DNA of 47,515 nt from positions 1-47,515 of the forward strand of contig JAFXHY010000209.1 of assembly GCA_017536215.1 (NCBI GenBank), read 5' to 3'. Under the pieces are notes generated by a model, which had not been told where the DNA came from, did not search any database, and saw only the letters and a program-made list of their open reading frames with translations. Below are positions 12,314-36,277 of the stretch, piece by piece. This stretch comes from Muribaculaceae bacterium. Its GTDB lineage: Bacteria; Bacteroidota; Bacteroidia; Bacteroidales; Muribaculaceae. The position numbers and the translations under genes were made by a program. The stretch's first letter is position 1. Each line of letters starts with the position of its first letter.

Positions 12314-12386
12314 GATTCGCTAGCTCAGCAGGTAGAGCACATCCCTTTTAAGGATGGGGTCCTGGGTTCGAGCCCCAGGCGGATCA
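12314..12386 (+). tRNA. tRNA-Lys(UUU)
   Basis: Cloverleaf: GATTCGC acceptor, TAGCTCAG D-arm, CATCC-CTTTTAA-GGATG anticodon arm, GGTTCGAGCC T-loop; TACCTTTG promoter upstream. Confidence 0.97.
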
Positions 12387-12439: not shown

Positions 12440-12600
12440 CGTATATATACCTTTGATTTCAAGCACTTAGCAATTTTAGCAATCGCCTATTGTTAAGAAA
12501 GTTAAATATTTCTGTGCTAAATTTTCTTGGTACTTTTTAGCATTTTGTAGGCTCGTTTTAGCACATTATCTTTGCATCAAAATCACGATGATTCTGCTTG

Positions 12601-12740
12601 GTGTACCGCAAAAGTGTACCGGATTAAGGCTGCTGCAAGTCCTCGTCTGTATCAGCCTTTTACGAGGAACCGATATATTTTGGTACACATTTCGGTACAC
12701 TCGTGGTACACTTCGGTACACTTTTACAGCTGTGTGTACC
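12601..12740. repeat. Seven GGTACAC repeats, probable integrase arm-type or accessory binding sites
   Basis: Direct copies at 12682, 12694, 12705 and 12715; inverted copies (GTGTACC) at 12601, 12614 and 12734. Confidence 0.75.
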
Positions 12741-12779
12741 TGCCAAAAAGAGATAATAACTTCAAAACACTTTTTAACA

Positions 12780-13913
12780 ATGGCGACAACACCTCAAGTC
12801 AGAATATTATTCGACCGCCGCAAACGCGCGACGGCGACCGTTAAGGGAACAGTAGAAATAGAAGTGGTATCTAACGGCGAGCGTCTGCGCCTCTCCACAG
12901 GTGTATGCGTACTGCGTCAGCAGTGGAAAGGCGGCTCCGTTATCAATCATCCCAAAGAAGCAGAACTCAACAAGAAAATCCGCGAGATGTACGACGACAT
13001 CTTCGCCCGGCTCTCCACTATGGTAAAGAGCGGCATCATCGACCTGCAACTGCTCAAAGGGAGCAAGGCACGTGTCGTGGAAGAAAAGGACGATTTTCTT
13101 GTATGGCTCGAACAGCGCATCATGATACGCGGAGTGACCGAGCCGACACGTCGACAGCATCTGGTAATGCACCGTTGCCTGAAAGAGTTCGGCATGATAC
13201 GCCGCTTCGAAGACCTCAATACGCGAAACATCAAGCTTTGGGACGACTTCATCCGTACCAAAGTGTCAGCTCAATCATCGATACACGGCTACCACAAGCG
13301 ACTGAAACCCTACGTTGTCGAGGCTATACAGCTCGGTCTGATAACTTCCAACCCATACGAGAATATGCGCATACCGCGCGGACATTCCGAGGGCATCAAG
13401 TTCCTGTCAGAAGAAGAACGCGACCGCATAGCCGACCTTGAATGTTACGGTCCCGTCGAGAAAGCCCGCGACCTGTTCATCTTCGCTTGCTACACCGGCC
13501 TGTCATACACAGACCTTGTGAAAATCCGCAAGGAAGACCTCATCAAAGAGGGTGACGACTACTGCATCAAGGACAAACGGCAGAAGACGAAAGTCCCCTA
13601 TACCATCGTCTTGCTTCCGCAAGCAATGGATATTCTGAAAAAGTACAACTTCTGCCTCAATATCATGTCTAACCAAAAGTGCAACGAGAACCTGAAGCTC
13701 ATCGCACAGATGGCAGACATACACATCAACCTCACCATGCACGTCGGACGGCATACATTCGCAACGTGGGCACTCAGCAAAGGCGTAGGCATCGAAACCG
13801 TAAGCAAGATGCTCGCTCACACCACAGTCACAATGACCGAGAACTATGCAAAGGTTCTCCAGTCCTCAGTCTATCAAGGTTACAATGTACTCAAATCGGC
13901 GGCAAACGGTTAA
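12780..13913 (+). CDS. Tyrosine recombinase/integrase (Bacteroidetes arm-binding, SAM-like and catalytic domains)
   Basis: FACYTGLSYTD, RQKT, HVGRHTFAT, KMLAH, TENYAK; likely start MATTPQ at 12780. Confidence 0.95.
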   Translation: MATTPQVRILFDRRKRATATVKGTVEIEVVSNGERLRLSTGVCVLRQQWKGGSVINHPKEAELNKKIREMYDDIFARLSTMVKSGIIDLQLLKGSKARVVEEKDDFLVWLEQRIMIRGVTEPTRRQHLVMHRCLKEFGMIRRFEDLNTRNIKLWDDFIRTKVSAQSSIHGYHKRLKPYVVEAIQLGLITSNPYENMRIPRGHSEGIKFLSEEERDRIADLECYGPVEKARDLFIFACYTGLSYTDLVKIRKEDLIKEGDDYCIKDKRQKTKVPYTIVLLPQAMDILKKYNFCLNIMSNQKCNENLKLIAQMADIHINLTMHVGRHTFATWALSKGVGIETVSKMLAHTTVTMTENYAKVLQSSVYQGYNVLKSAANG

Positions 13914-15699: not shown

Positions 15700-15908
15700 T
15701 AAGGAATAAACCGAACATCGACCCCGATAAGAAGTATAACGTGAAGGAGGCTTGCTTCGAGCTCGAAATTTGCGAGGACACCCTGCGCAAATATCGTGAC
15801 AGCGGTCTAATCACCTGCATACACATCACGAGCCGCGAAATATACTATCCCGGCTCTGAGCTGCTTTCTTTGTGGGAGTCAGTGCAAAAACGCAAGAAAC
15901 ATGATTGA
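15696..15908 (+). CDS. MerR/Xis-like HTH protein
   Basis: YNVKEAC.ELEI.EDTLRKYRDSGLI. Confidence 0.75.
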   Translation: MIRNKPNIDPDKKYNVKEACFELEICEDTLRKYRDSGLITCIHITSREIYYPGSELLSLWESVQKRKKHD

Positions 15909-18900
15909 CAAGACCACAATAGAAAGAGTGTTGCAGAGCGTTGACATCGTCGATGTTGTCTCAGAACACGTTACACTCCAAAGGAAAGGCTCTCTATATT
16001 GGGGCTGCTGTCCGTTCCATTCGGAGCGGACGCCCTCGTTTGCCGTCAGCAAGGCTCGCGGTACGTTCACTTGCTACGGCTGCGGAGCCCACGGTGATGC
16101 CGTGGAGTTCGTGCAGAAGCTCGATAACCTCACTTTCCCCGAGGCCATAGAGAGCCTTGCCAAGAAGTGCGGCATACAGGTGATGCACGAGCAACGCGAG
16201 CGCACCGACGAGGAAATCGAGGCGGCAAGACATCGTGAGAGTCTGTTGGTCGCTGTCACAGTGGCGCAGCAGTTCTTCATCGAACAACTGCAAGCTGAAA
16301 GTAAGGAAGCGGATGCCGCCCGGCAATACGCTTACGGTCGTTGGGGCGAGGAATACTGTAAGTCGGTCGGCATAGGCTATGCTCCCGATAGTTGGGATGC
16401 CTTGCCGGAATATTGCCACAGTCGCGGTGTGGACGAAGCCCACCTCAATGATGCCGGTCTCGTGAAGTTCACCGACAAATCCCGGAAGCATTATTCATTC
16501 TTCCGTGGTCGCATCACTATCCCAATCCGTGACCGCTATGGCAAAATTATATCCTATACCGCACGTTACTTCGGTGACGACCCCGAACAGCAGAAGTATC
16601 TCAACACCGCCAACACACCCATATTCGAGAAAGGCAATACCGTATTCGGACTGAATGAAGCAATCCGCCAAGCCGGACGAACAGGCCGCTTTATCATTGT
16701 CGAGGGTGCGCCCGATGTTCTCCGTATGCACTCCGATGATGTAGGACTGACGGAGACGGTCGCCACCCTCGGCACGGCATGGAGCGAAAAGCAGTTGAAA
16801 CAACTGCAACGCTACGCGCCGAGTCTTTGCTTCATTCCTGATGCCGACCCTCCGAAAGAGGACGAGCATTATGGCCCCGGTATAAAAGCCGTGATGAAGA
16901 ACGGTCTCGCCGCCATGCAGATAGGCTTCTCCGTATCAGTCAGGGAGATACCCGTCAGTGAGGACGGACACAAACAAGACCCGGACAGTTTCATTACCGG
17001 CTGTGACATCTTCAACTCGCTTGAAGATGTGCATTTTGCCGTATGGTACGGAAAGAAACTGCTCGGTGCTTGCGATACCGATACGGAGAAAGTACAGGCT
17101 CTTAACCGTATCTGCCGCGAGGTGCTTGTGCTCATCAAGGACGAGACACTGCTCAACTGCTGCATTGAATCACTATCAAAGATCTTCGGCAAGCTCAAAC
17201 TTTGGCGCGATGCCTTGCAGAACAGCCGCCAACAGATACGTCAGGAAGCCGCCCGTAAGGAGCGCGAAGCACTCAGCGAGGAACAGTCGGCTATGCGCGA
17301 ACTCGGTATCATCGTCCGCAACCGTTGCTATTGCTCCTATTCCAAGGAGGGTGAATTGGAAAGGTGGAGCAATTTCCTGATGGAACCGCTTTTCCATATC
17401 ATAGACGGCGACAATGCTATCCGCATCTTCCGCATCGTCAATGACAAGGGCGTGAAGCGCGAAATCGAGCTGAGACAGGATGAACTTGTCTCTTTGGCTC
17501 GTTTCCAACAACGTATCGAGAGTTTGGGCTACTTCATCTTCAAGGGTACTCTCGCCAATCTGCTCAACCTCAAGGAATATCTCTATTCCATCACCGACAG
17601 TGCGGTGCAGTTGAGCAAGATGGGCTGGAATACTGCAGAGGAGGTATATGCTTTCGGTGACGGCATATTCGCCGATAACGTGCTTTACGAGGTGAACGAC
17701 CTCGGTATCGTCAAGATTGGCGACCGCACGTTCTATCTCCCGGCATTTTCCAAAATGCACATCGAACAGAAAGACGCTTACCAGTTCGAGCGCAGCTTCT
17801 CATGCCGGCAGCATGGCGAAGTGTCGCTATACGACTATGTGCAGCGCATGGTTACGGTATTCGGTGACAATGCAAAGGTCGGCTTCGCCTTTTTGCTTGC
17901 CACTCTCTTTTTGGACGTTGTTAAACAAACATCCAAACGCCTCGCCCTGCTTAACATTTTCGGACGCAAGGGTTCGGGCAAGACGGAGTTAGGCACAGCT
18001 CTTATGTCGTTCTTCATACGGCAGAACGACCCGCCCTCGCTTGCCACTACCTCGATGGCTTCTCTTAATGAAATGCTGTCGTGTGCCGAGAATAATCTCG
18101 TGCATCTCGACGAGTATAAAAATGAAATCGACTTCCGCAAGATTGAGTTGCTCAAACAGATATGGGGCGGCAGCGGTCAGACCAAAAAGAATATGGACGG
18201 CGACAAAAAGGTGCAGCGCACTTTTGTACGTTCCGGCGTGATACTCACCGGTCAGGATGCACCGACACGTGACGATGCTCTTTTCTCTCGCGTCATTCAC
18301 CTATCCTACTCGCAGGTTACGTTCAGCAAGGAGGCCAAACGTAACTTCGAGGAGTTTCAGGCTATCAGCGCACGGGGTGTGTCACACCTTACCGTGCAGC
18401 TGCTGAAACTCCGCAAACTGTTTGAGACAGACTATGCCGCCCACTATGCCACCTGCAAGCGTGAGCTGATGGCGGTGCTTGCCGAGGACAGCATCGAAGA
18501 CCGACTGCTCAACAACTGGCTCGCTCCGCTTGCTGCGTTCCATACGGTGCAGACTTCACTCCGACTTCCCATTGATTATCTCGACCTGTTCAACATCTGC
18601 GTCGGCGGCATACGCCGTCAGAACGAGCAGTTGAAGAAGAACTCCGACATTGCGGTGTTCTGGTCGATGCTCGACTCCGGCCACATGCTGGGGCGCATTG
18701 TTGCCAAGAGCCATTTCGCAATCAAGGTGCAGTCCTCGTTTAAGCGCGTTGACGGCGATGTTATCGACTTTGGACGCAACAAGTCTGTTCTATACCTCAA
18801 TTATCAGAATGTTATCGCCACGTTGGGGCAGCGTGTCAACGGCTCAAACATCGTAGGCAAGCTCGACACCGTCTCGCTCGACTCTTATCTGCGGACGCAT

Positions 18901-19209
18901 CCGGCGTTCCTCGGCACGAAACAATACCGCTTCCGCGTTCTGCTGCCTAACGGTACGCCTGATTATACCTTTGAAACTCGCGATGGCCGTTCCATTCGTC
19001 GCGTTAAAGAGGTGCGCCCTATGGCTTTCGTTTTCGATTATGAATTGCTCAAAGAGAGTTACGAGATTAACCTCGAAACTCAGGAGCGCAACGAAAACGA
19101 TGCCTCGGACGATGATGTCGAGGACGAAACGCTCCCGGAACAGCCCGAAGAAACGGCATCTCCACAATCAACATTATTCGAGCAAGAGGAGTCCGAGGTG
19201 CCGTTTTGA
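15901..19209 (+). CDS. DnaG-type primase (CHC2 zinc finger, TOPRIM) fused to a P-loop NTPase/helicase
   Basis: CPFHSERTPSF..CYGC, KYLNT, IVEGAPDV, PDAD, KQDPD; C-terminal GRKGSGKT and HLDEY; acidic tail ending EVPF. Confidence 0.92.
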   Translation: MIDKTTIERVLQSVDIVDVVSEHVTLQRKGSLYWGCCPFHSERTPSFAVSKARGTFTCYGCGAHGDAVEFVQKLDNLTFPEAIESLAKKCGIQVMHEQRERTDEEIEAARHRESLLVAVTVAQQFFIEQLQAESKEADAARQYAYGRWGEEYCKSVGIGYAPDSWDALPEYCHSRGVDEAHLNDAGLVKFTDKSRKHYSFFRGRITIPIRDRYGKIISYTARYFGDDPEQQKYLNTANTPIFEKGNTVFGLNEAIRQAGRTGRFIIVEGAPDVLRMHSDDVGLTETVATLGTAWSEKQLKQLQRYAPSLCFIPDADPPKEDEHYGPGIKAVMKNGLAAMQIGFSVSVREIPVSEDGHKQDPDSFITGCDIFNSLEDVHFAVWYGKKLLGACDTDTEKVQALNRICREVLVLIKDETLLNCCIESLSKIFGKLKLWRDALQNSRQQIRQEAARKEREALSEEQSAMRELGIIVRNRCYCSYSKEGELERWSNFLMEPLFHIIDGDNAIRIFRIVNDKGVKREIELRQDELVSLARFQQRIESLGYFIFKGTLANLLNLKEYLYSITDSAVQLSKMGWNTAEEVYAFGDGIFADNVLYEVNDLGIVKIGDRTFYLPAFSKMHIEQKDAYQFERSFSCRQHGEVSLYDYVQRMVTVFGDNAKVGFAFLLATLFLDVVKQTSKRLALLNIFGRKGSGKTELGTALMSFFIRQNDPPSLATTSMASLNEMLSCAENNLVHLDEYKNEIDFRKIELLKQIWGGSGQTKKNMDGDKKVQRTFVRSGVILTGQDAPTRDDALFSRVIHLSYSQVTFSKEAKRNFEEFQAISARGVSHLTVQLLKLRKLFETDYAAHYATCKRELMAVLAEDSIEDRLLNNWLAPLAAFHTVQTSLRLPIDYLDLFNICVGGIRRQNEQLKKNSDIAVFWSMLDSGHMLGRIVAKSHFAIKVQSSFKRVDGDVIDFGRNKSVLYLNYQNVIATLGQRVNGSNIVGKLDTVSLDSYLRTHPAFLGTKQYRFRVLLPNGTPDYTFETRDGRSIRRVKEVRPMAFVFDYELLKESYEINLETQERNENDASDDDVEDETLPEQPEETASPQSTLFEQEESEVPF

Positions 19210-19620
19210 CGCAGTTCTCCCCATTACCTATTACTAACAAATGCCGTGAAAATTTGACCCCACGGCATTTTTTATGATGTTTTTTCAAAATATTTTTTTG
19301 CTTGCTTCGGAATTTCAGCGAGTCGAAATTTCGGCAAGACAATTCAGCCAACTTAGACAACGCAACATATCTGCAAGTTACAGCGATTTTTGCCGTGCCA
19401 AAGCCTTGACACGTTTAGACAAAATCGCAGAGCTTTCGGGTTCAATAGCCGAAAATAGACAACAAAAGCCACTATATAGATATATGATTTTTGACTGACA
19501 AAATTCTATATCTTTATATATGAGCGGCTTATCTTCGTTGCTTCTCTTTCGGCTATTTGTCTGATTTCGCTACCCCTACAATATCCTCGTATGTGCGCGA
19601 GGCATTTTCTCTCGCTCTCG
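19210..19620. other. Candidate replication origin
   Basis: Non-coding region after the primase with (T)AGACAA repeats at about 19337, 19354, 19416 and 19456, an inverted TTGTCT at about 19557, and A/T tracts. Confidence 0.4.
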
Positions 19621-19723: not shown

Positions 19724-20215
19724 ATGAGCGAAATTTGCATCTACTTGCCACTTGAAGATTACCTCGCCCAATGGTTCATACATGAACAGGGGGGCGAGGT
19801 GCCGGTGCATCTTCTGCGTGGGTCGGTAGAGAGCAAGATTCTCGAAAACTATCTAATCGCCCGTCCGCAAGATGAATTGCCGGAGATCTGCCACTGCGGC
19901 AAACTCCCAATCGCAATTCCATACTTCCGCTACCGGCCACCGGCTACTTATAATTTTCTGCCTCGCCGTGCAATGGCTTCGCTCCTTAGCATCATTCGCA
20001 GTCGCTTTGATGTTGTGCTGTGGAGCGAGTTGCACCATTTCGGCAAGATAGACAAGCGTCAGGATAACCTGATTTATGCCTTCATGGAGAAGCACGGCAT
20101 CGAACAGACGGAGAAGAACTGGAACGCAATTGCCAAACGCTACCAACGGCAGCGCAACATCTATCTCCACCGTGAACGTGCTAAAAAACAATATTTGCGC
20201 AAAAAAAGTAATTGA
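19724..20215 (+). CDS. Hypothetical basic protein, possible transcriptional regulator
   Basis: Own TAATTTTG promoter at 19696; Arg/Lys-rich C-terminus; sits between replication and structural modules. Confidence 0.6.
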   Translation: MSEICIYLPLEDYLAQWFIHEQGGEVPVHLLRGSVESKILENYLIARPQDELPEICHCGKLPIAIPYFRYRPPATYNFLPRRAMASLLSIIRSRFDVVLWSELHHFGKIDKRQDNLIYAFMEKHGIEQTEKNWNAIAKRYQRQRNIYLHRERAKKQYLRKKSN

Positions 20216-20256
20216 TTTCAGCGCATCTAAAATTCAATTATGCTATTTCTGCTATA

Positions 20257-20700
20257 ATGAGAAAAAATACCCAGATATTGCCCGGCGTGAAGTCAATCGG
20301 TTGTGTCGATTGTCTGAAGCTCGTTGATAACGTCGCTTTGCGCGGCATCTGTCGGATGCCTGTGCCGGTTATGACCGATGTACAGATGGTCGAAGTATTC
20401 GACGAGGCGGAGTGTTCGTGCAAGACGGAGCGCGACAATCGGCAGAATACCGATACTGCCTCGCTGAAATTCCTTGCGCCCGAACTGCTGCCTATCCATC
20501 TGCACCTCGGTTTTGTCGTTACAGACGTGAACGACAAGCAATATCTGATTGGGGCTAAGGAGCCGCCTTATCCCCAAGTGAAAGTCGAACAGCGTTGTGG
20601 TCTGCCTTCCGGCGATGGCGCTGGGTTCTTCTACGAAATTACCCACATCGCCTTGAAGTCACTTGTTCCATGCACCGCAACGCTTTATCCTGAAACTTGA
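20257..20700 (+). CDS. Hypothetical phage protein
   Basis: Phage-like codon use; start MRKNTQILPGVKSI. Confidence 0.65.
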   Translation: MRKNTQILPGVKSIGCVDCLKLVDNVALRGICRMPVPVMTDVQMVEVFDEAECSCKTERDNRQNTDTASLKFLAPELLPIHLHLGFVVTDVNDKQYLIGAKEPPYPQVKVEQRCGLPSGDGAGFFYEITHIALKSLVPCTATLYPET

Positions 20701-20806
20701 TTTTACCGTTCCCAAATCGTCATACAGATTTTGAAGTTTGATTGCCGCCGGTCTGAGAAGATAGGCGGTAATTTTTTTTGCGGCGGAGAAAAAATTTTTA
20801 TTGGAA

Positions 20807-22290
20807 AGCGAGAGCCTCTCTTGCGAGCGACACCCTGCGTCGGGTCAGGAACCTCGGTCAGCGGTGGCGGAACACGGGTGCGCCTAAGTTGCAGCCCCAT
20901 AAACAGGACGGCAGCATAATCAAAGGGGAAGACCGCCCATTTTCGTAGCTTTTTTTCTTTGATGTAAGGCAAGTGTCCCGTTCTTCACAGTAGCCCTTCG
21001 GGTGTCGGAGTCTGTAACACTCCATAGCATCGAGTTTTCGGCTCGTGCTGAGCCTATCGCATCTTTCAGAGTTGAAATCATCCTCTATGAAGCCTTCGTT
21101 GATGCCGTTGAAAGCACAGCCCAAACCATCGGCTCTTTATCGGGTCTACCCATCTGCGTGAGCCTTGCAGATTATTGGTGTCGCGCATCGAGCCGCAACG
21201 GTCTATCCACGGACGGCACCGCCGCCATTGTACTTGCCAACATTGTAAGTACCGACATAGAGTGTCGCTGATTTGTCTGCGCCGCTCTTGTTACTCCGGC
21301 ATCCTCGGTCGGGGTCAGTCGTTCCGCCTGTACGTGGCGGCTTCGCCACTCTCCGTGAGTCTTATTCCCTGCTTTCCATCTTTCATCTCCGTTTCCATTC
21401 TCCGGGTATCACTCCAGGCTCATTGTCATTTTTCCTGCACAAAGTTAGTAAGGTCATTCACCGGCGAAAGGGCAAGTTTGCACTCCGTGTTCCTCCGTTT
21501 TTCGCTTCGTTGCAAAACGGCAATCACCCTTGCGCCCTCGGTTCACTTTCGACCTCACTTTGGTTTGTTTGTAAAAATTAAAACAATGAACCATACGTTA
21601 AACCCATCAATTTCAACTACAATGAGATTACAATTCGGAGAACTCAACATCACTCCAAGAGTCGTGAACCGACTCCACGAACTGGACTTCACTGTCCCAG
21701 AACTCGAAGATGCCATCGCTGACCACAAGAGCAGCTGCGACGGCGAACCCTCTGTCTACGTCGGTACTTACGGCAAGTACAACAACGGCTCGCTCTGCGG
21801 CCTGTGGATTGACCTCAGCAGCTTCGACGACTACGACGATTTTATCAATTTCTGCAAGGCTATCCACGCCGACGAGGAAGACCCGGAGCTGATGGCTCAG
21901 GACTTCGAGTGCTTCCCACGGCAGTGGTACAACGAGGGATTCATGGACGAGGACGACTTCAACCATATCCTCGAATACTCTCAGATGTGCGACAAGCATG
22001 GCACAGAGGCCGTCGATGACTATATGGAGTATTACGACGACTTCGACAGCTTCGATGAAGCCTACTGCGGAGAATGGGACAGCGAAGAGGACTTCGCCCG
22101 TAGCATCATCGATGAGTGCTACGACATTGAAAAGTCAATGGGCAATCTCGCCAATTACTTCGATTACGAAGCCTTCGCTCGCGACCTGTTTATGTGGGAC
22201 TACAACATGGGCGCACACAATCACGTGTTCCGCCGCCTCTGACCCCTGACCCGACGACTTCGGGAGTCACTCGCAAGAGTGGCTCTCGCT
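20807..22290. repeat. Giant imperfect inverted repeat A (mirror of ardA)
   Basis: Reverse complement of about 20807-21477 matches about 21529-22290 in ordered blocks: GTCGGTACTTAC, GGCAAGTACAA, TCTGCAAGGCT, CCTGTTTATG, CGTGTTCCGCC, CCTGACCCGACG, CTCGCAAGAG.GGCTCTCGCT. Confidence 0.93.
21586..22242 (+). CDS. ardA: Antirestriction protein ArdA (acidic DNA mimic)
   Basis: VYVGTYGKYNNGSLCGLWIDL, YCGEWDSEEDFA, YFDYEAFARDL; very acidic; alternative start at 21622. Confidence 0.93.
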   Translation: MNHTLNPSISTTMRLQFGELNITPRVVNRLHELDFTVPELEDAIADHKSSCDGEPSVYVGTYGKYNNGSLCGLWIDLSSFDDYDDFINFCKAIHADEEDPELMAQDFECFPRQWYNEGFMDEDDFNHILEYSQMCDKHGTEAVDDYMEYYDDFDSFDEAYCGEWDSEEDFARSIIDECYDIEKSMGNLANYFDYEAFARDLFMWDYNMGAHNHVFRRL

Positions 22291-22297
22291 GCGTTGT

Positions 22298-23473
22298 TTA
22301 TGCTTTTCGAGGAGCTTTCCCTATAATATATCGCTTCGTTAAGTATTCATTTATTGCTTGAAGCGAATAATTATTTAGAGGAAGTTCATTTAGATTTTTA
22401 TATGTTTCTTCCGCAAACATTTCAGCTCTAACTTGTGCTTTGTTTGCTAATTGAAAAAAAGATTCTTCTTCTGTTTCACAGAGCCCTCCAGTTCCGTTTG
22501 GGACAAGACTCCCATGTTGATATAATTTCAAAGCATCTTTCCAAACACTTTCTACCATAATACCTAAATCATGTTCTGTTCCAACTTGGTAAGCCGCAAT
22601 ATAATTCCCAAATGTTTGAACAACTGGATTTACTCCAAAATGAATCATAGCAAATGGCTGTTGATAATGATAATATAAATCCCCTCGCAATGCAAAATCA
22701 TTTATAATATTTGCCAAACAATTGGCATAGCCTTCTCCATAATTAGTGATGTACCAATTAGACACTGCTATGCTTCTGCTTAAATATAAGTCTACAAGAG
22801 CAAGCATATCATATGCAGCAATACCATTTTCTTTTTCTGATAATTCAAACATTCCAGATAAACCAAGTAAATGTTGAAGTTCATAAAGAGCATCTGAACA
22901 TGATTGAATCCCTATTGGACTATGCCAATACGGATTTGTCATAGTAAATACAGGCTGTAAAGCCTTTAGTAAAAAACAAATGCCCTCTTTGTAGATTTTG
23001 GCATTTAAAAACATTTGAGCCAATTGGCTATTTATGTAGGGATGTTTACAATCAGTATATTTCTTTATATATGGAGAAAAATCAATTTTTTCATACGCAA
23101 TTTTCTCCGTAATAGTTTTATAATGTTGAATTTCTGTTCGGCGAAATTCATATTGAGGTCTGCCGTTTTCTTTTACTTTTGAATTGTTGTAATCTTTAAT
23201 AAATTCATGCAGTTCATTATCATCATCTAAATTCATATACTCATTTATTTGAGCATAAGAATATACACTATTTTTAGCTCGACCAAGGATTTCCTTCATC
23301 AAGTTTATACGCAACCGCTCCTCTGAATTTAATTCGGAGTTGTTACTATTATTAGCAATCCACTCACGTAAAGCTTGCTTCTTATCCGTTGTAGATATTA
23401 TTAGTTCCTCCAACTCAGGAAAGGAGGAAACTAAAAAAGCCAATCGTTCTGCATTTTGTCTTACTTCGTCCAT
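22298..23473 (-). CDS. AT-rich hypothetical cargo protein, paralogue of 36929
   Basis: Long AT-rich ORF with its own TAATTTTG promoter (23478-23485, - strand); shares WHSP.G and YLSRSIA with 36929. Confidence 0.8.
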   Translation of the reverse strand: MDEVRQNAERLAFLVSSFPELEELIISTTDKKQALREWIANNSNNSELNSEERLRINLMKEILGRAKNSVYSYAQINEYMNLDDDNELHEFIKDYNNSKVKENGRPQYEFRRTEIQHYKTITEKIAYEKIDFSPYIKKYTDCKHPYINSQLAQMFLNAKIYKEGICFLLKALQPVFTMTNPYWHSPIGIQSCSDALYELQHLLGLSGMFELSEKENGIAAYDMLALVDLYLSRSIAVSNWYITNYGEGYANCLANIINDFALRGDLYYHYQQPFAMIHFGVNPVVQTFGNYIAAYQVGTEHDLGIMVESVWKDALKLYQHGSLVPNGTGGLCETEEESFFQLANKAQVRAEMFAEETYKNLNELPLNNYSLQAINEYLTKRYIIGKAPRKA

Positions 23474-23564: not shown

Positions 23565-24542
23565 ATGTCTAAAACCGCATACAACATCTCGCTCAAAGGG
23601 TACGTCGGAGGCTCTGACTTCGACCGCAAGACCGTTGACACAACCCTTGCTCAAAACGAGGGTAAGCGCGTCAATGTACTTATCGACAGCCTTGGCGGTT
23701 CTCTCGCCACCGGCTTGTCTATCTCATCGGCGTTCCGCAACCACGGCAATGTTGCTGTCCACTTCGTGGGACTCAATGCCTCGGCTGCAACCATCGCTTC
23801 GCTCGGTGCAGCGCATATCTCGATGGATGCCGGGGCTATGTATCTCGTGCATAAATGCTCAATGGCATTTTTTGAGTGGGGTTCGCTCAACAGCGACCAG
23901 TTCGCTACGCTCATTGCCGACTGTGAGAAGATTAAAGCCGACCTCGATAAGCTCGACCTTAATTGCGCCCAACTCTATGCCTCTCGCTGCAAACGCAAAA
24001 CGCAAGACCTGCTCGCCCTGATGAAAGTCGGAGGCTGGCTCTCGGCAAAGGAAGCCCTCGAATGGGGCTTTGTCGATGAAATCACCGACCTTGCCGACGA
24101 ACCGGCTCCCAAACTCACCGATGCTCTCGCTTCTGCGATGGCCTCAGAGGGTGTGCCGATACCGAACATTCCTGTTTCCGAGGCTGAAAAGGATTCAGCA
24201 TTCGTAAAATTTATCTCCGCTATTGCTTCGATATTCCAATCTAAACCCCATATCGATATTAAACAAGACGAACAACCCACCAACGACCAGTCGGCACGCA
24301 TCGCCGACCTCGAAGCGCAGCTTGCCGACAAGGACAAGACCATTGCCGACAAAGACGCTCTCATCGCTGACCGCGATAAGACCATCGCCGACCTGCAAGC
24401 CAAGCTCGACAAGAAACCGGCTGAGGACACCACGGCAGTCGTAGACGATGCCAAGCCCTCAGGCAACACCGACCCCAAGAACGATGTCGAGCAGTTTGTA
24501 GATACCTACAACTCTGCTCGCGCTCTCTACAACGAAGTATAA
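23565..24542 (+). CDS. ClpP-like prohead protease with coiled-coil (scaffold-like) tail
   Basis: IDSLGGS, GLNASAAT, LVHK, WLSAKEALEWGFVDEI; heptad repeats ADKDKTI/ADKDALI/ADRDKTI. Confidence 0.9.
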   Translation: MSKTAYNISLKGYVGGSDFDRKTVDTTLAQNEGKRVNVLIDSLGGSLATGLSISSAFRNHGNVAVHFVGLNASAATIASLGAAHISMDAGAMYLVHKCSMAFFEWGSLNSDQFATLIADCEKIKADLDKLDLNCAQLYASRCKRKTQDLLALMKVGGWLSAKEALEWGFVDEITDLADEPAPKLTDALASAMASEGVPIPNIPVSEAEKDSAFVKFISAIASIFQSKPHIDIKQDEQPTNDQSARIADLEAQLADKDKTIADKDALIADRDKTIADLQAKLDKKPAEDTTAVVDDAKPSGNTDPKNDVEQFVDTYNSARALYNEV

Positions 24543-24563
24543 ACCATAAAACCCTATACCACA

Positions 24564-25523
24564 ATGGCAGGTAAATTCTCATTCACTCTCCAAGAGTATC
24601 AGGAGGCAGCGGTCAAATACCGCCCCGACCTCCTTATGCTCCCGATTATCGGCATCGGCGATACGCTCCAGTTTATGACCGGTCGCCCCGGCATCCGATA
24701 CAAGGAGCGCGTCGGCAACCTCACAGGTGATGCACAGTTCGCTCCATACAATCCCCAACGTGCCGTGGACTACAACCTCGGCATCGAGTTCCGCGACCTC
24801 GAAACCTACTTCGGCTCTGTTGTCGCCAACTTCGAGCCGAACAGCGCAATCTCTACATTACTCGGTACGGGCGCAACCAAAGGTGACGGTCAGATGACTA
24901 CACCCACCGCTCGCCACGTCCTCGCCAAGATTGCCAAGAACCTTTCCGAACATCTCAACGATGCCGTTTGGAACGGCAAGCGCAACGCCGCCGGTGATAC
25001 CACCGCCGACCTTTTCGACGGCTTCGACACGATTACCGAAAAGGAAATCGCCAATGGTGCTATCGCTGAAGCCGAGGGCAACTACATGAAGTTCACCGAC
25101 GCGATTACTCCGGCTAATGCCGTTGACATCGCCAAGGAAATTCTGTTCTCGCTCGACCCGCGCCTGAGAAGTCAGGACTTGTATCTCTATTGCTCACAGG
25201 ACTTCGTCGACAAGTACAACGAAGGCTACCTGCTCACTCACGGCGGCATACCGTACAACACGCAGTACGGACAGCAAGCCGTTGAAGGCTCTAACGGCAA
25301 GCTGAAATTCTGCCCCCTCTACAACAAGGCAGGCTCGAAGTTCATGCACGTTACCACCAAGGCAAATATGCTCGTCGGTTACGACCAGATGGGCGATGTG
25401 GAAAACGTGATGGTGAAAGAGTATGCTCCTTTCATCCTCTCGTACATCGCCACTATGTTCTTCGGTGTGCAGTTTGAAACGCTCGACAAACGCCGTTTCA
25501 AAACCATTGAAATCACGGTGTAA
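24564..25523 (+). CDS. Major capsid protein (probable HK97 fold)
   Basis: Follows the protease; 319 aa; AVWNG...DLFDGFDT motif typical of capsids. Confidence 0.75.
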   Translation: MAGKFSFTLQEYQEAAVKYRPDLLMLPIIGIGDTLQFMTGRPGIRYKERVGNLTGDAQFAPYNPQRAVDYNLGIEFRDLETYFGSVVANFEPNSAISTLLGTGATKGDGQMTTPTARHVLAKIAKNLSEHLNDAVWNGKRNAAGDTTADLFDGFDTITEKEIANGAIAEAEGNYMKFTDAITPANAVDIAKEILFSLDPRLRSQDLYLYCSQDFVDKYNEGYLLTHGGIPYNTQYGQQAVEGSNGKLKFCPLYNKAGSKFMHVTTKANMLVGYDQMGDVENVMVKEYAPFILSYIATMFFGVQFETLDKRRFKTIEITV

Positions 25524-25561
25524 TTTCTCTCACCTTTTACCCTTTACCTCATACCTAAGTT

Positions 25562-26149
25562 ATGGCTTCTAAATGTACCTCTATACAGAAATCGCTCGGT
25601 TGGTGCCAAGGCACCCCCGAGCTTCCCGGTGTCTAACGCCGCATCTACTACCTCGCCAAGAGCGAGATTGTGGCGTTTCCACAACTCCCTCGTGATGAAC
25701 TCGGTCGTGCCACTTCCGCTATCCTTGCCGGTGACTTCACACTTGCCGCTGATGCCAAGTGGAAGTATATCGACATCCTCCCAGACAAGTCGCAGTTGAC
25801 CTCCGAGGCTCAGGGCGAATTGCCCTCGCAGACGCAGCTCAACAAACTCACTGCCGTTCACCCCGGAGTCGGTGCTGATGCGTCAGCCGCTGCTGCCTAC
25901 ATCAACAACACCGACAACGTGTTTGTCGTGGAAGATATGAAAGGCAATCACCGTGTCCTCGGCAACGACAAGTGGAACACGAAAGCCACTGTCGCCCAGG
26001 ATTTGGGTCAGGGTGCCACCGGCACGACCTCGACCACAATCTCCGTCGAGGCTACCGACGAAGTGCCTGCGCCCTTCTATGTCGGCACTCTCGAAACCGA
26101 GGACGGCGATATTGACTGCTCCGCTACCGGCACAGTCAAGAAAGCGTAA
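25562..26149 (+). pseudogene. Probable virion structural protein (tail-tube-like) with an in-frame TAA at 25634-25636
   Basis: MASKCTSIQKSLGWCQGTPELPGV*RRIYYLAKSEIV continues in frame into the 25670-26149 ORF. Confidence 0.7.
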
Positions 26150-26172
26150 CCGCCAATTCTCTGCATAACCCT

Positions 26173-26844
26173 ATGGATAGAGCCGTCAGGAAAGGAGCAA
26201 TCGCGTTGGACGAGATGTTGAACGACATCGAAGTGCCTTCGCTCGACGTTCCCGACCTCGACGGCTCTTTTGTTCCGACCGGCGAAGCCAAAGACCTGTT
26301 CGCCGAGAAGAAGCGAGCGGCATGGAAAGATGTGCAACAGGCAGAAGCCCGTTGCGACTTCGCCCCCAATAAGGTGCGCATTTCCTACCGCAATCCGGCT
26401 TTCGGAATAATCTCGCTCTGGAAAAAATCTATTTATGGACGCACTCTCACAGAAATAAAATCTGATGAGAGTATGGTGGAGAAATTTGCCGAAGGCATGA
26501 ACACCCTTATCCGGCAAATTCTCGGTCACTCGCTCGCGTCAGGCGACTGGTGCATCGTAACCTCGCCCAAGCGCAGACACAAGACACAGAACTTTGCCTC
26601 GATGATCTCAGCGAAACTCGGAGAACTTCTCGGCATACCGTTCTATGAAGACCTTGCCGAGTGCCACTCCAAGCATCGTGTCGGGGCTGTCTTTACCTTT
26701 GGAAAAGAACCGCCCAAAGAAAGTAACATCATCGTCTTTGACGATTTCGTCACCACCGGCGCCACAATGATTTCAATGCGCGAGCTGCTAATGCCACTCG
26801 GCAAAAATCTTGTGTTTTTCACCGGAATAAACAACAAACTTTGA
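26173..26844 (+). CDS. Phosphoribosyltransferase-fold (ComF-like) protein
   Basis: PRPP-binding loop IIVFDDFVTTGATM. Confidence 0.75.
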   Translation: MDRAVRKGAIALDEMLNDIEVPSLDVPDLDGSFVPTGEAKDLFAEKKRAAWKDVQQAEARCDFAPNKVRISYRNPAFGIISLWKKSIYGRTLTEIKSDESMVEKFAEGMNTLIRQILGHSLASGDWCIVTSPKRRHKTQNFASMISAKLGELLGIPFYEDLAECHSKHRVGAVFTFGKEPPKESNIIVFDDFVTTGATMISMRELLMPLGKNLVFFTGINNKL

Positions 26845-26875
26845 CCCCTGCGACCAAAATAATTTTGACCCCTCT

Positions 26876-27493
26876 ATGGATAATAAATTCACTGAACTAA
26901 TCGGACAATGGCTGCAAACGCCCGAAGCGGAGCGCGACTACACCATAGGCGCACTCTATCTGCTGAAACTCTCCGGCAATCAAATCATGTATCGCAACAT
27001 TGTTGCTCAACTTGACCGCCGCCACGATGTCGTGGAGTATCAGCTTCAGAAATACTACAATTTCCGCGTTCAGGCTCTGACACACGCCCAAGTTGAGGAA
27101 ATGTCGGCACAAGTCGAACAGATTGTTGCCGACCATATTCCACTTGCCACCGAAGCCGACAAGCAACCGCAGAAAGGCAAGCGAGCCGACCACGACTCTT
27201 TGCCGGACGACATCAAGGCTCGCTACGTTGAGAACCTTTCGCTTCTACAACGTATGCGCGAGCTGCATCTGCGCCTCCGCTCGCTCTCGCTTGACAACGC
27301 TCCATGCCCGGATTCCGAGCGTTATCCGTTCTTGAAAGAACTTATATCGCTCGACAAGAAACTTCATGCCAACTGGGAGGCATACGACCACTATGTCGCA
27401 CCAAGCCCCGATGCCGTTCCCTCGCGTCCGGCTAAGACCGTCCGTTCCGCCGCAGGTGCTAAGAATACCACCAAGAAGTCTGCGAAGAAATGA
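26876..27493 (+). CDS. Hypothetical phage protein
   Basis: Helical ORF, translationally coupled to the next gene. Confidence 0.75.
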   Translation: MDNKFTELIGQWLQTPEAERDYTIGALYLLKLSGNQIMYRNIVAQLDRRHDVVEYQLQKYYNFRVQALTHAQVEEMSAQVEQIVADHIPLATEADKQPQKGKRADHDSLPDDIKARYVENLSLLQRMRELHLRLRSLSLDNAPCPDSERYPFLKELISLDKKLHANWEAYDHYVAPSPDAVPSRPAKTVRSAAGAKNTTKKSAKK

Positions 27494-28011
27494 AACGCAC
27501 TGCCAACATTGACCAAATCCTTCGTCCGTTGAAAGTAACGCCATATCAGGCTTATCTTTCAAATGCCGTGCAGGTTGCCGACATCCTCGAATGGATATTG
27601 GCACAAGTCGGCATTGCTGAAGTTTGGCAGACTTCTTTCTCTATCTCCGAGGAGTTTTTGCGACGGCTCTATTTTATCACCAAGGATAAAAAGGTCAGTC
27701 GCATCAACCTTGTTCTCGACCACAAGGCTACGAACAAGACACTCAAACTTTGGGCGTTCATCACCCAAGTTATTGAGCGTACCTATCTTGCAGATAACCA
27801 CAGCAAGATATTACTCGTCCAGTCCGAGCGAGGCGACACGGTAAGTGTTATCACCTCGCAAAACCTGACACGAGGCAACCGCCACGAGTCAGCTTTTATC
27901 TCCACCGACCCGGCGATCTTCGCGACGCTTAAAGCGCAGGTCGATGATTTAATCACCAATCATTCAGTGCCGCTCCATGACCTATTCCGACAACGACTTG
28001 ACGCAGATTGA
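27490..28011 (+). CDS. Phospholipase D-fold nuclease-like protein
   Basis: NHSKILLV...TSQNLT (HxK...S-x-N variant of the HKD motif). Confidence 0.65.
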   Translation: MKRTANIDQILRPLKVTPYQAYLSNAVQVADILEWILAQVGIAEVWQTSFSISEEFLRRLYFITKDKKVSRINLVLDHKATNKTLKLWAFITQVIERTYLADNHSKILLVQSERGDTVSVITSQNLTRGNRHESAFISTDPAIFATLKAQVDDLITNHSVPLHDLFRQRLDAD

Positions 28012-28252
28012 AAAATTCGCGTCCATATATTTGAAGATTTCTGACATCGCCGTAATACTCGATATTCCGGCTGATGTACTACGCAACGACATCGCGGACA
28101 GAAGCACCGAGGTATCGAAAGCCTACCGACGCGGCAAAGCCGCCTCGAAAGTCAAGCTACATTCTCAGGAAATGATGCTTGCGCAGGTAGGCTCGCCCCT
28201 CGCCATCGAAAACGCCCACCGCAACTTACTTGACATGGAAGACGATGAGTAA
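27977..28252 (+). CDS. Hypothetical small HTH-like protein
   Basis: KISDIAVILDIPADVL; overlaps both neighbours. Confidence 0.65.
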   Translation: MTYSDNDLTQIEKFASIYLKISDIAVILDIPADVLRNDIADRSTEVSKAYRRGKAASKVKLHSQEMMLAQVGSPLAIENAHRNLLDMEDDE

Positions 28253-28886
28253 CCCGTCCACGCTCGATATTTGCAAGCAATACCTTTTCTCCTCTGTCGA
28301 GGACATCAAGGCGCAGTTCAACAGCGATGCCGTTGTTGAGCGCGTTTTGCGTGTCCGTGACCTCTATATGTGGCGGCTCTCCAATCCCGACTCCTCCGAC
28401 CGAGATTTTATCTCCGAGTTCAAATCTCGCTATCCTATGGGCAAGAACGCAGCCCAAGAGTATCTGCGCATCGTCAACGCTCTGTTGCCGATGCTGTCGG
28501 AGAAGTCGCGTGAGTTCCACCGTTGGCGGTACAACGAGATGATTATGGAGACCTACCAAATGGCAAAGGCGCGTAAGGACACAAAGACTATGGAACGTGC
28601 CGCCACTTCCTACGGCAAGCTCAACAAGGTTGATGCCGAGGATGTTCAAGCTGTGCCGTTCCACCTGATTGTCGTGCAGCCGTTTGTCGCTACCGACGAC
28701 CCCTCTGTCCTCGGCATAAAGCCGATACCCGGCATCGAGGACAAAATCAAGGCTATGCTCGACAAGTATTCGGCTGAAACTCTCGACATCGAGGATGTGG
28801 AGTTTGAGGAAGCCGATTTGGAAGAAGACGAACTTTTTGCACCTTACACTGATGGAAACAGCGGAGAAGAAACGAATATACTTTAA
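28245..28886 (+). CDS. Putative terminase small subunit
   Basis: Immediately upstream of and overlapping terL; acidic C-terminus. Confidence 0.5.
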   Translation: MSNPSTLDICKQYLFSSVEDIKAQFNSDAVVERVLRVRDLYMWRLSNPDSSDRDFISEFKSRYPMGKNAAQEYLRIVNALLPMLSEKSREFHRWRYNEMIMETYQMAKARKDTKTMERAATSYGKLNKVDAEDVQAVPFHLIVVQPFVATDDPSVLGIKPIPGIEDKIKAMLDKYSAETLDIEDVEFEEADLEEDELFAPYTDGNSGEETNIL

Positions 28887-30504
28887 CAAGCCCCAACGCC
28901 TGACGCAGCTTATCGGCGCGAACACCACCGTTATTGTCGCAGGGCGACGCACCGGCAAAACGGACAGCATAGCTGCTCCGTTTGTTCTGCGCAATATGCA
29001 GCGTATGCCCGGCTCTACCGGCGGCATCGTCGTGCCGACTTTCAAACACGGTTTGACGAACACCATCCCCGGACTGCTCGCCGCTTGGAAACGCTGGGGC
29101 TACATCGAGGGTGTGCATTATGTGGTCGGTAAGAAACCGCTCAAATCCTTTGCGCGGCCAATTACCGAGCCTAACGACTACGAACACGTTATCTCTTTCT
29201 ATAATGGCTCTATCGCCATTATCATCTCGCAAGACCGCCCCGGCTCGTCCAACTCGCTGACCCTGTCGTGGCTTCTCGTCGACGAGGCGAAGTTCATCAA
29301 TTACGACAAGCTCAAAGATGAAACGCTCCCGGCCAACGGCGGCATCAAGTCGTACTTCGGCAAGCACTCCTTTAATCACTCTATAATGATACTGAGTGAT
29401 ATGCCGCAAACCAAGAAAGGCTCGTGGTTTCTCCACTACCGCGAGAAGATGGACTCCGACCTTATCGCTACAATAGAGGGAACGGTTTACGAGATATGGC
29501 GCATCAAAGACCGCATACGGCAGATGCGCTCCAAGGGTGAGCATATCCCCGATTACCTGAAAGGCAAACTGCGCAAGCTCGACCGGCAACTCAATCAGTT
29601 GCGGTCGGTCGCTGTCTACTATAAAGAATACAGCAGCATCGAGAACTTGCAACTTCTCGGAGAGAACTACATAAAGCAGATGAAGCGCGACCTCACGCCG
29701 CTTACGTTCCAAACCTCAATCCTTTGCCGACGCATAGGCATTGCCAAAGATGGTTTCTATTCCTCGATGCGTGAGGGTCACAAGTACGACGGCAACAACA
29801 ACGAATACCTCGAAAGTCTCGGTCTCGATGTTGCTCTACGTCACCCCGACATTGTGGAAACCATGTCGTCGCTCGCCGATGGCGATGTTGACCCCGACGC
29901 GCCTATCTGCATCGGCATGGACTACAATGCAAATATAAACTGGATTGTAGCCGGACAGCCTCGCGACCGTCGACTCAATGTGATTAAGTCATTCTACGTC
30001 AAGTTTGAGCGTAAGATACCGGCACTCATAGAGGACTTCTGCCGCTATTATGCCTCGCACCGCAACAAAACCGTTGTGTTTTATTACGATGCCACGGCTC
30101 TCGGCTCAAACTATGCCGTCAACGAACAGGATTTCCGTTGGGTGGTAGTCCACGAGTTCGAGCGGCAGGGATGGCGTTGCGAGGCAGTGTACCTCGGAAA
30201 CCCGATGCGACACGATGAAAAGTACCTGCTCATCAACCAAGGCTTCGCAGGTAAGCAACGCCTGATGCCATTTTTCAACCGCTCGAACAACGAGGACTTG
30301 ATTCTCGCTATCCAGTCCGCCGGTGTCAGCCGTGGACGCAACGGCTTCCGCAAAGACAAGTCCGGCGAAAAGCTTGCCGAAAGTGAGGAGGATTTATTGG
30401 AGCATCGCACAGATGGTACAGATGCTTTTGACACGCTGTATATAGGTTGCGAGAAGTTCCCTTATAGGGATACTTTCACATTGCCAACAGCGGGCATCAT
30501 ATAA
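28852..30504 (+). CDS. terL: Terminase large subunit
   Basis: Walker A AGRRTGKT, Walker B LLVDEAK, RNase H-like IGMDYN and DGTDAFD. Confidence 0.88.
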   Translation: METAEKKRIYFNKPQRLTQLIGANTTVIVAGRRTGKTDSIAAPFVLRNMQRMPGSTGGIVVPTFKHGLTNTIPGLLAAWKRWGYIEGVHYVVGKKPLKSFARPITEPNDYEHVISFYNGSIAIIISQDRPGSSNSLTLSWLLVDEAKFINYDKLKDETLPANGGIKSYFGKHSFNHSIMILSDMPQTKKGSWFLHYREKMDSDLIATIEGTVYEIWRIKDRIRQMRSKGEHIPDYLKGKLRKLDRQLNQLRSVAVYYKEYSSIENLQLLGENYIKQMKRDLTPLTFQTSILCRRIGIAKDGFYSSMREGHKYDGNNNEYLESLGLDVALRHPDIVETMSSLADGDVDPDAPICIGMDYNANINWIVAGQPRDRRLNVIKSFYVKFERKIPALIEDFCRYYASHRNKTVVFYYDATALGSNYAVNEQDFRWVVVHEFERQGWRCEAVYLGNPMRHDEKYLLINQGFAGKQRLMPFFNRSNNEDLILAIQSAGVSRGRNGFRKDKSGEKLAESEEDLLEHRTDGTDAFDTLYIGCEKFPYRDTFTLPTAGII

Positions 30505-30554
30505 ATCCTCTGAGTCCGAAGTTATCGGCTTGCCGCTTTGCTCCGCAAAGAACA

Positions 30555-30665
30555 CTCCTCGAACACCGCACCGACGGCACCGATGCCTTCGATACTCTCT
30601 ACATCGGTTGCGAGAAATTCCCATACCACGATTCTTTTTCGCTGTCTACGAGCGGAGTTTTATAG
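30555..30665 (+). pseudogene. Orphan second copy of the terL 3' end (37 codons)
   Basis: Reads LLEHRTDGTDAFDTLYIGCEKFPYHDSFSLSTSGVL* versus LLEHRTDGTDAFDTLYIGCEKFPYRDTFTLPTAGII* at 30394-30504. Confidence 0.92.
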
Positions 30666-30717
30666 TTTGGCTATCACAATATTATTTTGTAATTTTGTGA
30701 TTATCAAACTTCAGTTT

Positions 30718-31356
30718 ATGAAATCTAAGATTACTTTTACGGCTATCATATCCTTATGCTTCATGTTTTTCTCTTGCTCCACAAAGCAAGAAAAAGGTCT
30801 TTCTGATGAGTTTCTTATAGCCAACGACGGCACAATGACCGACCACGATAAGCAGAATGTTAATCACTATAATTATTTTGTCGAGATGGCAGACTCGCTC
30901 ATCGTTTATCACAGAAACTACGATTTGCGACACATGGGACAATGCATAGTCGCCATGAATCGTTCTCGTGACAAAATATCTTGGTTTAGCCATCCTAATG
31001 ACAAACTTAAAAAAAAGACCTCCGAGAACATCTCGAAAATTCAGTCTAAACTTGACAGCCTCGGTGTTCCACAAGAGGTAACTTATCCAATAAATGTCGG
31101 GGAAATCTATCTTTATCCCAAAAACGGAGTTATTGAAATTAACACTGCATCTCCCTCAAATAATTTCAAATTATACAATGCTTCAATAGACTCCGAGGGC
31201 AATTTGGTTAGAACCGTCCATCGCCGCCATATTTTATATGAAGCGACGCAATCTCCTATTGAAGGAGTCTATACTATTAAAGACCTTACCTCTACATACA
31301 CATTAAAAGTTCAAAACGGATTTAAAGCCAGTCCCAAAATAGATTTCCATGATTGA
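30718..31356 (+). CDS. Hypothetical lipoprotein (cargo)
   Basis: MKSKITFTAIISLCFMFFSC lipobox; TAATTTTG promoter at about 30690. Confidence 0.75.
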   Translation: MKSKITFTAIISLCFMFFSCSTKQEKGLSDEFLIANDGTMTDHDKQNVNHYNYFVEMADSLIVYHRNYDLRHMGQCIVAMNRSRDKISWFSHPNDKLKKKTSENISKIQSKLDSLGVPQEVTYPINVGEIYLYPKNGVIEINTASPSNNFKLYNASIDSEGNLVRTVHRRHILYEATQSPIEGVYTIKDLTSTYTLKVQNGFKASPKIDFHD

Positions 31357-31918
31357 TATTAAAAACAACGCCCTCGGCGCTGTGGGCGAACATCAAACTC
31401 TTTCATGATTGCTACTGCTTGGCTATCAAGCTGCAATTACCAATCTATCCGTGAAGAACGATGAATCGACCGACATTTTATGCCGAGATACAAAAGGCCG
31501 ATTTGTTGCCATTCAAGTTAAGGCTACCAAAGGAGACAACATAACTGTAGGCTTTACTCATAAAGAGTTTTATGATGCCAACGGCAACTTGGATTTGGCT
31601 AAGGGCAAAGCATTTCTTGACAAGAAAATAGTCGGACCGTGGGTGCTTGTTCAAGTCTGCGGATCTACCGTTCTCCCCACTTTCAAGTTCTTCATACTTT
31701 CTCCCTCTCAAATACGAGAACTCATCTATGACTCTGAAAAATGGTATCTGACCGGCCACCATCGAGCTAAACTTCCTGATGCCTCAGGACGTATCGGTAT
31801 CCCCGTTCCTTGGTTAAACGGGCAAGGTGTTCCTGCAAATTCTAATCATGTTGAATGGATTAACCCATTCGCTTCTGAGAAGTTTGAGGACGCTTGGCAT
31901 AACTTATTGATTGATTAG
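31349..31918 (+). pseudogene. PD-(D/E)xK nuclease-like gene with an in-frame TGA at 31406-31408
   Basis: MIDIKNNALGAVGEHQTLS*LLLLGYQA...STDIL...IQVKAT. Confidence 0.7.
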
Positions 31919-31919
31919 G

Positions 31920-34964: not shown

Positions 34965-34991
34965 GTTAACAATACTTTTTATAATATTTAA

Positions 34992-36267: not shown

Positions 36268-36277
36268 TGAGTTTCAA

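Follow-up and report, generated by a model that had tools for sequence, protein, structure and literature searches.

Promoters of the Frpo/ssi type have been described from F, ColIb-P9 and pESBL, where a stem-loop on the incoming strand rebuilds the promoter boxes and synthesis of the second strand silences them, according to the accessible parts of these reports (PMC9849209, PMC11541004, bioRxiv 10.64898/2026.01.09.698686). On pESBL, hairpin promoters in single-stranded DNA (ssDNA) drive ardA, as stated in the accessible part of PMC12672017. The same parts of this literature place the stems between genes (regulatory regions of 50-350 bp or windows of 300 nt were searched), with sigma-70 -35/-10 boxes and on conjugative plasmids. 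In F, a further short intergenic stem, the ssp2 roadblock, has been tested experimentally, and the available text reports that its stable hairpin prolongs the single-stranded state (bioRxiv 10.64898/2026.01.09.698686); the long stems presented here could do the same but are known from sequence. For the Bacteroidota, the part of PMC6847099 at hand gives the -33/-7 consensus as TTTG/TANNTTTG, with transcription starting 4-5 nt after the box. A description of whole-gene hairpins or of Bacteroidota ssDNA promoters was not found in the literature searched, most subscription journals lying outside it, and a study of ICEs in Porphyromonas, in its accessible part, refers to ArdA but makes no reference to hairpins.

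The window, a stretch of 47,515 nt from a Muribaculaceae bacterium (contig JAFXHY010000209.1), holds modules of a gene and its mirror that are Frpo-like but distinct in location, size and promoter type. As in Frpo/ssi, a stem-loop on the template strand would rebuild boxes 5' of ardA, ssb and establishment genes and is predicted to be silent in double-stranded DNA. The box is absent from the gene strand and an anti-defence gene is present (ardA, or ssb together with ardA at locus L104). In contrast to Frpo/ssi, the modules have a Bacteroidota -7 box and a stem of 0.7-1.5 kb over the whole coding region plus terminator, this stem can overlie another gene, and the modules reside mainly in tailed temperate phage. 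The location here is a tailed prophage with no relaxase or T4SS match and no identified oriT; conjugative genes flank loci L078 and L104.

ardA and its mirror arm in a tailed prophage

Judged by gene content, the element in the window is a tailed temperate prophage (Caudoviricetes-like). Its left end lies at a tRNA on the plus strand (12314-12386), the only Rfam match in the window and the likely attachment site; phage contigs of runs X6, X8 and X11 begin at 12332-12359. All further genes of this part are on the plus strand as well: a tyrosine integrase (12588-13913; PF00589, phrog_1), a DnaG-type primase with a long C-terminal part (15901-19209; profile matches), a head cluster (23565-30504) and a portal protein (42689-44029; phrog_11226, E 3.4e-07). 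The head cluster comprises a ClpP-like head protease (23565-24542), a capsid-like protein (24564-25523) that was recognised by Atlas features only and had no match in the phage collection, a PRTase-fold protein (26173-26844) and the large terminase (28795-30504). Tape measure and amidase were found past the window end in relatives G001 and G004. No relaxase or T4SS match appeared in the whole records of relatives; the ORF scan covered G001 and G004 and left out G002, G003 and G005. Bacteroides phage BT-TP2 and distant terminase relatives have a similar gene order (primase, a pair of small genes, ClpP protease, terminase, portal, tape measure and integrase), but a long hairpin was found in none of the three distant relatives BT-TP2, MT835542 and Mea-Yong924-1, whose terminase identity is only 27-35%. 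Because the named relatives, among the matches listed, are mostly Muribaculaceae and other Bacteroidales, we infer a Bacteroidales host.

Several other features of the prophage deserve mention. The gene of the PRTase-fold protein is conserved within the head cluster and has a weak ComF match (TMq 0.48 for ComF vs 0.49 for ShosT, APRTs coming first by E-value); a role in the handling of ssDNA is only a lead. An imperfect, shorter inverted repeat in the non-coding stretch 3' of the primase gene (19444-19557) is possibly a replication origin. Variable cargo occupies two slots (30538-38095 and 22298-23473). Here it includes a type IIG/type I-like methyltransferase with a specificity subunit and a PDC-S11 match, the window having a defence island, and relatives carry type III RM-like, PglZ/DUF6079 (BREX-like) or AAA genes in the same slots. 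A single 614-aa gene lies between tape measure and integrase (L107:6857-8701). No tail-fibre gene of the phage was recognised; the variable gene at 40771-41925 is a candidate for this function. Matches of a 205-aa protein are limited to two uncharacterised Siphoviridae proteins. A second, partial ardA-like match (residues 170-212, 56%) is located at a contig end (G000:C67:142-270).

The gene at the centre of module A (21586-22242, plus strand) encodes a protein of 218 aa with 50 D+E that matches the PF07275 profile with 118.7 bits (E 4.8e-34; cut-off 27 bits) and is, by its sequence, an ArdA family member and putative acidic DNA mimic. The first-pass annotation had placed ardA in a hairpin with its own scrambled antisense copy, the minus strand of 20807-21430 tracking ardA in order, with its reading frame destroyed and the pairing retained. 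Local alignment of the reverse complement of 20700-21500 with 21500-22400 yielded a score of 302; 300 shuffles averaged 28 (sd 3, max 40), and the same segments in direct orientation scored 24. The aligned span reaches from 20807 to 21472 on the mirror side and from 21527 to 22290 on the gene side, with 482 of 634 columns identical (76%). The antisense copy was thus confirmed, all four matches quoted as examples lying within the alignments, and so was the loss of its frame, with stops in all three frames and net deletions. The word scrambled was mistaken: the mirror pairs collinearly with leader, ardA and the hairpin after the stop. It also reaches as far as 21472 and takes in the promoter region, on which its meaning hinges.

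Mirror arm A (20807-21472, minus strand), the predicted non-template strand of the ssDNA hairpin, is accordingly a bulged copy of ardA, leader and terminator, separated from the gene side by a loop (21473-21526). A hairpin with a GCAA loop (22264-22285, plus strand; by eye, within an inverted repeat) is the likely terminator and is mirrored too. A second hairpin followed by a T-run 5' of the mirror (20742-20775, plus strand), seen by eye and absent from the terminator-scan list, is likely the end of the upstream operon. As ssDNA, module A folds into one long hairpin in silico, with -339.8 kcal/mol for the plus and -359.0 kcal/mol for the minus strand. An assembly artefact at the locus was ruled out: a contig of run X4 covers 19860-23118 with 1 difference, and the region is present in 4/4 DNA runs. 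RNA runs, two of them probably DNA, yielded assembled contigs with partial cover.

On mirror A, a consensus -7 box, TAACTTTG, lies at 21440-21447 (minus strand) and is predicted to fold with an unpaired 5' end; upstream on ardA's own strand, no TAnnTT[T/C]G box was found. In the folded minus strand, this box stands opposite 21557-21568 and is followed by a paired A-run into the ATG. The -33 element is only suggestive: once the template strand is folded, a -33-like stretch, CCCTTTCG (21465-21472, minus strand), is paired to the partner of CCCTTGCG (21527-21534). A sigma-70 scan gave 2 hits vs 1.5 expected, which is chance level. In a census of 237 modules (score of 100 or more, 500 nt or more), a TAnnTT[T/C]G box near the loop occurred on a single side in 226 and on neither side in 11, and no module had it on both, at a background of 8%; four of the 11 are transposon modules that carry CACCTTTG on the mirror. 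In annotated modules, among them 7 with genes in the opposite orientation, it is the mirror that bears the box. This placement of the -7 box supports the link of ardA to an ssDNA promoter at which the first-pass annotation had hinted; the tailed prophage, the mirror box and the total of four modules are additions to that annotation.

We therefore propose, with a probability of roughly 70%, that module A is an ssDNA-activated transcription unit that works in a Frpo-like manner. Since the -7 box is on the mirror and absent from the ardA strand, the promoter would exist only once the minus (template) strand is single-stranded and folds on itself. In the folded strand, the mirror would serve as non-template strand and the real gene as template, and RNA polymerase, starting near 21573, would yield normal ardA mRNA as soon as the strand has entered a new cell. 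By analogy with Frpo/ssi, synthesis of the complementary strand would shut ardA off. Without a non-template strand, a transcript tends to stay hybridised to its ssDNA template. The mirror would for this reason displace the mRNA, the whole-gene stem likely substituting for the non-template strand by re-annealing in the wake of the polymerase, with release of the transcript. The long stem perhaps also slows second-strand synthesis as ssp2 does, and the imperfect pairing likely lets the duplex escape type II restriction while the double-stranded form stays stable.

Modules in phages, transposons and islands

The gene-plus-mirror modules are a real, conserved, multi-copy system. Among ardA loci from IMG/VR, the mirror was found in 24/24 (scores 280-438; downstream controls 21-37), and the mirror is thus not unique to one strain. 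A wider ardA survey comprised at least 104 loci, 99 of them with at least 600 nt upstream. Among the matches listed, 52/56 ardA genes in phage context scored 100 or more, compared with 9/43 in other contexts, where 4 more reached 70-99; for gene B1 of module B, again among the matches listed, a mirror accompanied 69 of the 71 loci with enough flank (80 fetched). These conservation counts include many closely related loci. The four misses in phage context are two broken ardA genes (L051, L058) and two short stems (L062, L066), and in the close ardA homologues without mirror (L051, L058, L059) all three genes are broken. Among strains in culture, Duncaniella muris DSM 103720 has the ardA module in phage context (L035).

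Within the window, a hairpin scan identified four modules, A, C (38237-39056), B (39163-40491) and D (44667-45394), dispersed over about 25 kb of the genome; five relatives, read whole or across the prophage, have three to five modules each. In module C, the mirror arm (38237-38583, minus strand; box TAACTTCG at 38570-38577) faces a gene for an acidic protein of 67 aa (38792-38995, plus strand; 15 D+E, 2 K+R). The mirror arm of module B (39163-39698, minus strand; box TAACTTTG at 39691-39698) is followed on the plus strand by three genes (39910-40200, 40249-40452 and 40464-40718, together 39910-40718), and the mirror reaches up to 40491, taking in two complete genes and the beginning of the third. 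Module D combines a mirror arm (44667-44973, minus strand; box TAACTTCG at 44942-44949) with a gene of 81 aa (45109-45354, plus strand). Variation in genes B1, B2, C and D is of the kind expected for coding sequences: third positions are the most variable, and the 75, 60, 48 and 28 distinct matches, respectively, contain no internal stop. The products of genes B, C and D are candidate anti-defence proteins, that of C being strongly acidic.

The design recurs outside phages, among others in elements of the conjugative-transposon type, for which entry as ssDNA is to be expected. Whole-gene mirrors are found at ardA genes beside a topoisomerase and mostly also RteC (L077, L078, L079, L081), with coupling protein and relaxase adjoining in L078. 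At L104, a short stem precedes an operon with ssb and ardA that adjoins tra genes (L104:7182-7554); L096 and L100 also have a short stem and resemble L104 by ORF pattern. Eleven more Bacteroidales ardA genes combine a short stem with a box on the opposite strand (L066, L067, L073, L076, L080, L125-L127, L129, L130, L132). Judged by these sequences, the stems form a graded series from Frpo-sized to whole-gene, and the short-stem version with the box on the opposite strand is likely the general form of a Bacteroidota ssDNA promoter.

The same modules are also borne by nine islands that have neither capsid nor relaxase (L028, L170, L173, L176, L199, L200, L207, L209, L231) and contain an integrase, HTH_17, DUF3987, a PriCT-2 primase and variable defence cargo. 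There the modules stand in tandem. In addition, we observed mirrored ardA genes outside any recognisable phage near restriction or defence genes (L039, L030, L056), at L039 directly 5' of a type I RM cluster, and three tandem modules on a Lepagella contig (L038:157-4933) with a class A beta-lactamase-like gene between two of them.

This distribution bears on the possibility of a genuine hairpin promoter that acts in the induced lysogen, on displaced replication strands or after extrusion by supercoiling, and not when a new cell is entered. A phage with a DnaG primase and without relaxase would suit such a process, as would modules spread along the genome instead of forming one leading cluster. 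However, an arm of 72-85% identity loses to the perfect duplex unless the strands are fully separated, ArdA and the avoidance of restriction sites matter most in a foreign host, and the same cassettes occur in tandem in capsid-less islands and also in conjugative transposons. We regard firing in the lysogen as unlikely and prefer activation of the unit on entry of a single strand.

Selection on pairing in a probable DNA duplex

The bulges, perfect runs and palindromes of the stems point to a DNA duplex. Lengths of gene-side bulges of 1, 2, 3, 4, 5 and 6 nt were counted 290, 209, 154, 275, 203 and 123 times, respectively, with a peak at 4-5 nt, whereas simulated lengths fall monotonically. The longest perfect run averages 13.5 vs 17.7 in realigned simulations and is shorter in 40/46 modules. 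Palindromic 4-mers of the gene, which we take to be common restriction sites, are fully paired in 166/1391 cases (0.12) vs about 0.23, a rate that is lower in 43/46 modules, the 46 being kin within a few gene families; simulation yields no effect (0.313 vs 0.311). Pairing is as rare as 1/119 for AGCT and 1/37 for GATC. The effect is strong in close and distant ardA genes and in module B, modest in C and small here (6/32 = 0.19 vs 0.24) and in transposon ardA genes (0.15 vs 0.19). Pairing is reduced for palindromes of the arm as well (0.174 vs 0.269), and most breaks are bulges or mismatches other than C-to-T changes; for these two reasons, general avoidance or decay of methylated cytosine is not a full account.

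A preference for the template strand itself is weakly shown by the sequences. Purine-purine mismatches are biased toward the template strand in 37, 40 and 39 of 46 modules, and the G-T wobble asymmetry is weak (27/46). The template strand has the fold-energy advantage in 46/46 modules, but 6/6 control coding windows behave alike and the measure is confounded by composition.

These statistics also bear on a role at the level of RNA, which we consider improbable. The mirror could yield a leftward, non-coding, sense-like RNA acting as decoy or in an R-loop, or read-through could produce a 1.5-kb hairpin of the plus strand that silences ardA. The mirror box fits the consensus for double-stranded DNA and could fire leftwards in this form, and such an RNA from module D would run antisense to a structural gene. 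Still, avoidance of paired palindromes, AGCT and GATC above all, suits a DNA duplex and not RNA, G-U wobble is not clearly favoured on either strand, and the genes would be left without a promoter of their own. A terminator-like hairpin, seen by eye, lies 5' of the arm, and Rfam gave no match. A DNA hairpin that serves as template of an ssDNA-activated unit agrees better with these observations.

That selection acts on pairing rather than coding, as the first-pass annotation had suggested, is supported by sequence comparison. In 46 dereplicated modules, the identity of arm and gene stays within a narrow band of 72-85%. Arms score their own ardA above the best foreign ardA in 26/27 cases, even where the best foreign one is near background. 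Covariation with two or more matched types was found in 80 columns, compared with a mean of 52 and a maximum of 64 after label shuffling and with 36-45 columns after sliding; arms and genes were aligned separately, the voting of column pairs from their own alignments introducing a mild bias. A site-by-site test aligned to foreign genes found own about equal to foreign, this test being biased toward foreign. Since arms resemble one another more than they resemble foreign genes in 150/210 pairs, they appear to be inherited and adjusted, not freshly copied.

Two cases concern mirrors that lie in another gene. In the strongest one, seen in L049, L050, L053, L055 and L057, probably one clade, the ardA mirror is inside an intact gene homologous to window 20212-20700, and this host gene of the mirror reaches scores of 74, 61, 80, 67 and 46, the 7 controls giving 22-33. 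The outer arm of module D (44667-44846) is the conserved coding 3' end of a DUF6712 gene with its stop at 44846, and the DUF6712 C-terminus recurs in phages that lack gene D as well as in distant homologues. Gene D may be derived from the DUF6712 antisense strand. As a single example, L053:9256-9681 is a mirror arm that doubles as coding sequence, homologous to window 20212-20700.

Because mirrors lie in these older coding genes, a decayed duplicate cannot explain these arms, and we find it very improbable that the arms in general are functionless pseudogenes, inverted duplicates whose similarity is maintained by gene conversion or template switching. The arm's broken frames and its net deletions would agree with such an origin, and quasi-palindrome correction could help to maintain the match of arm and gene. 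But the identity band across 46 modules, the non-monotonic bulge lengths and the box on the mirror are at odds with it, the arm is an intact coding gene in one clade and an old C-terminus in module D, and the close ardA homologues without mirror are all broken. Unconstrained decay, lack of covariation and sporadic presence, as would be typical of pseudogenes, were not observed. Least probable is an invertible promoter, a form of phase variation in which the box would be moved to the gene side when the arms recombine: the box does point away from the gene and invertible promoters are common in Bacteroidales, but only one orientation was seen, with the gene-side box absent from annotated modules and both sides boxed in 0/237, contigs of 4/4 DNA runs, which drop rare forms, held no inverted (strand-change) joint at module A, and a crossover within the arms would break the gene. 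Activation of module A in ssDNA is the reading we pursue below.

Possible entry as a single strand

A single-stranded stage is not expected for a phage with terminase, portal and tape measure but without relaxase or T4SS match. A possible starting point is a conserved non-coding site of ~230 bp that adjoins the primase gene of the islands, at which their tandem modules point, and that contains two inverted repeats and a G-run (L028:8990-9220, L107:2202-2431). Phages have it in the same orientation directly before the tape-measure gene, and in phages and islands alike it is preceded by about 0.8-1 kb of common repeated units. It lies beyond the end of the window and of the G000 contig. The site was present in 19/20 loci, always in an island or phage setting, the twentieth being an unrelated stretch. 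It was found beside none of 58 relaxase loci of the host family, had no match in plasmid or phage collections, and its pattern occurred in 0/401 genomes of the order. These site searches identified no oriT, although a sequence that mimics oriT may be short. Other phages have related primase modules.

Two classes of hitchers are known, islands with only an oriT (bioRxiv 10.64898/2026.01.13.699239) and phage satellites (PMC11389934), and judged by the accessible parts of these reports the islands without capsid and relaxase fit either (iOriT or satellite). They differ from the established examples, as far as these parts describe them, in that their site is shared with a complete prophage and absent beside the 58 relaxase loci. 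It is possible that they are satellites of this phage family. The shared site may serve helper and satellite alike as a signal for packaging or entry, or it may be an oriT that is used in trans. Should the minus strand begin there, the modules would be leading-region genes in both kinds of element.

Taken further, the DNA delivered by virions of tailed, terminase-portal phages and their satellites would reach the cytoplasm as one defined single strand, either packaged as such or stripped of its partner on entry, with the shared site as the start of the strand. These elements would have evolved self-duplexing genes, with a rebuilt promoter, a restriction-proof duplex as template and neighbouring structural genes rewritten into the mirror. 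Alternatively, the prophage would spread by conjugation with its own hitch-hiking oriT; spread of prophages on conjugative megaplasmids has been proposed (PMC12934698, available part). This wider proposal is tentative, and we give it less than even odds.

The proposed activation in ssDNA predicts that a common family of tailed gut prophages is single-stranded when it enters a cell, whether through the virion or through conjugation, and the conjugation route, a prophage with a hitch-hiking oriT, would be new as well. In the modules, the short stem of the Frpo idea is extended to a mirror that spans whole genes and co-evolves with them. They also reveal measurable selection against paired restriction-type words in gene mirrors and two unrelated protein genes evolving into approximate reverse complements. 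The module signature could nominate new anti-defence proteins such as the products of genes B, C and D. Finally, a predicted ssDNA promoter of the Bacteroidota with a clear sequence signature would map establishment genes in mobile elements of the gut.
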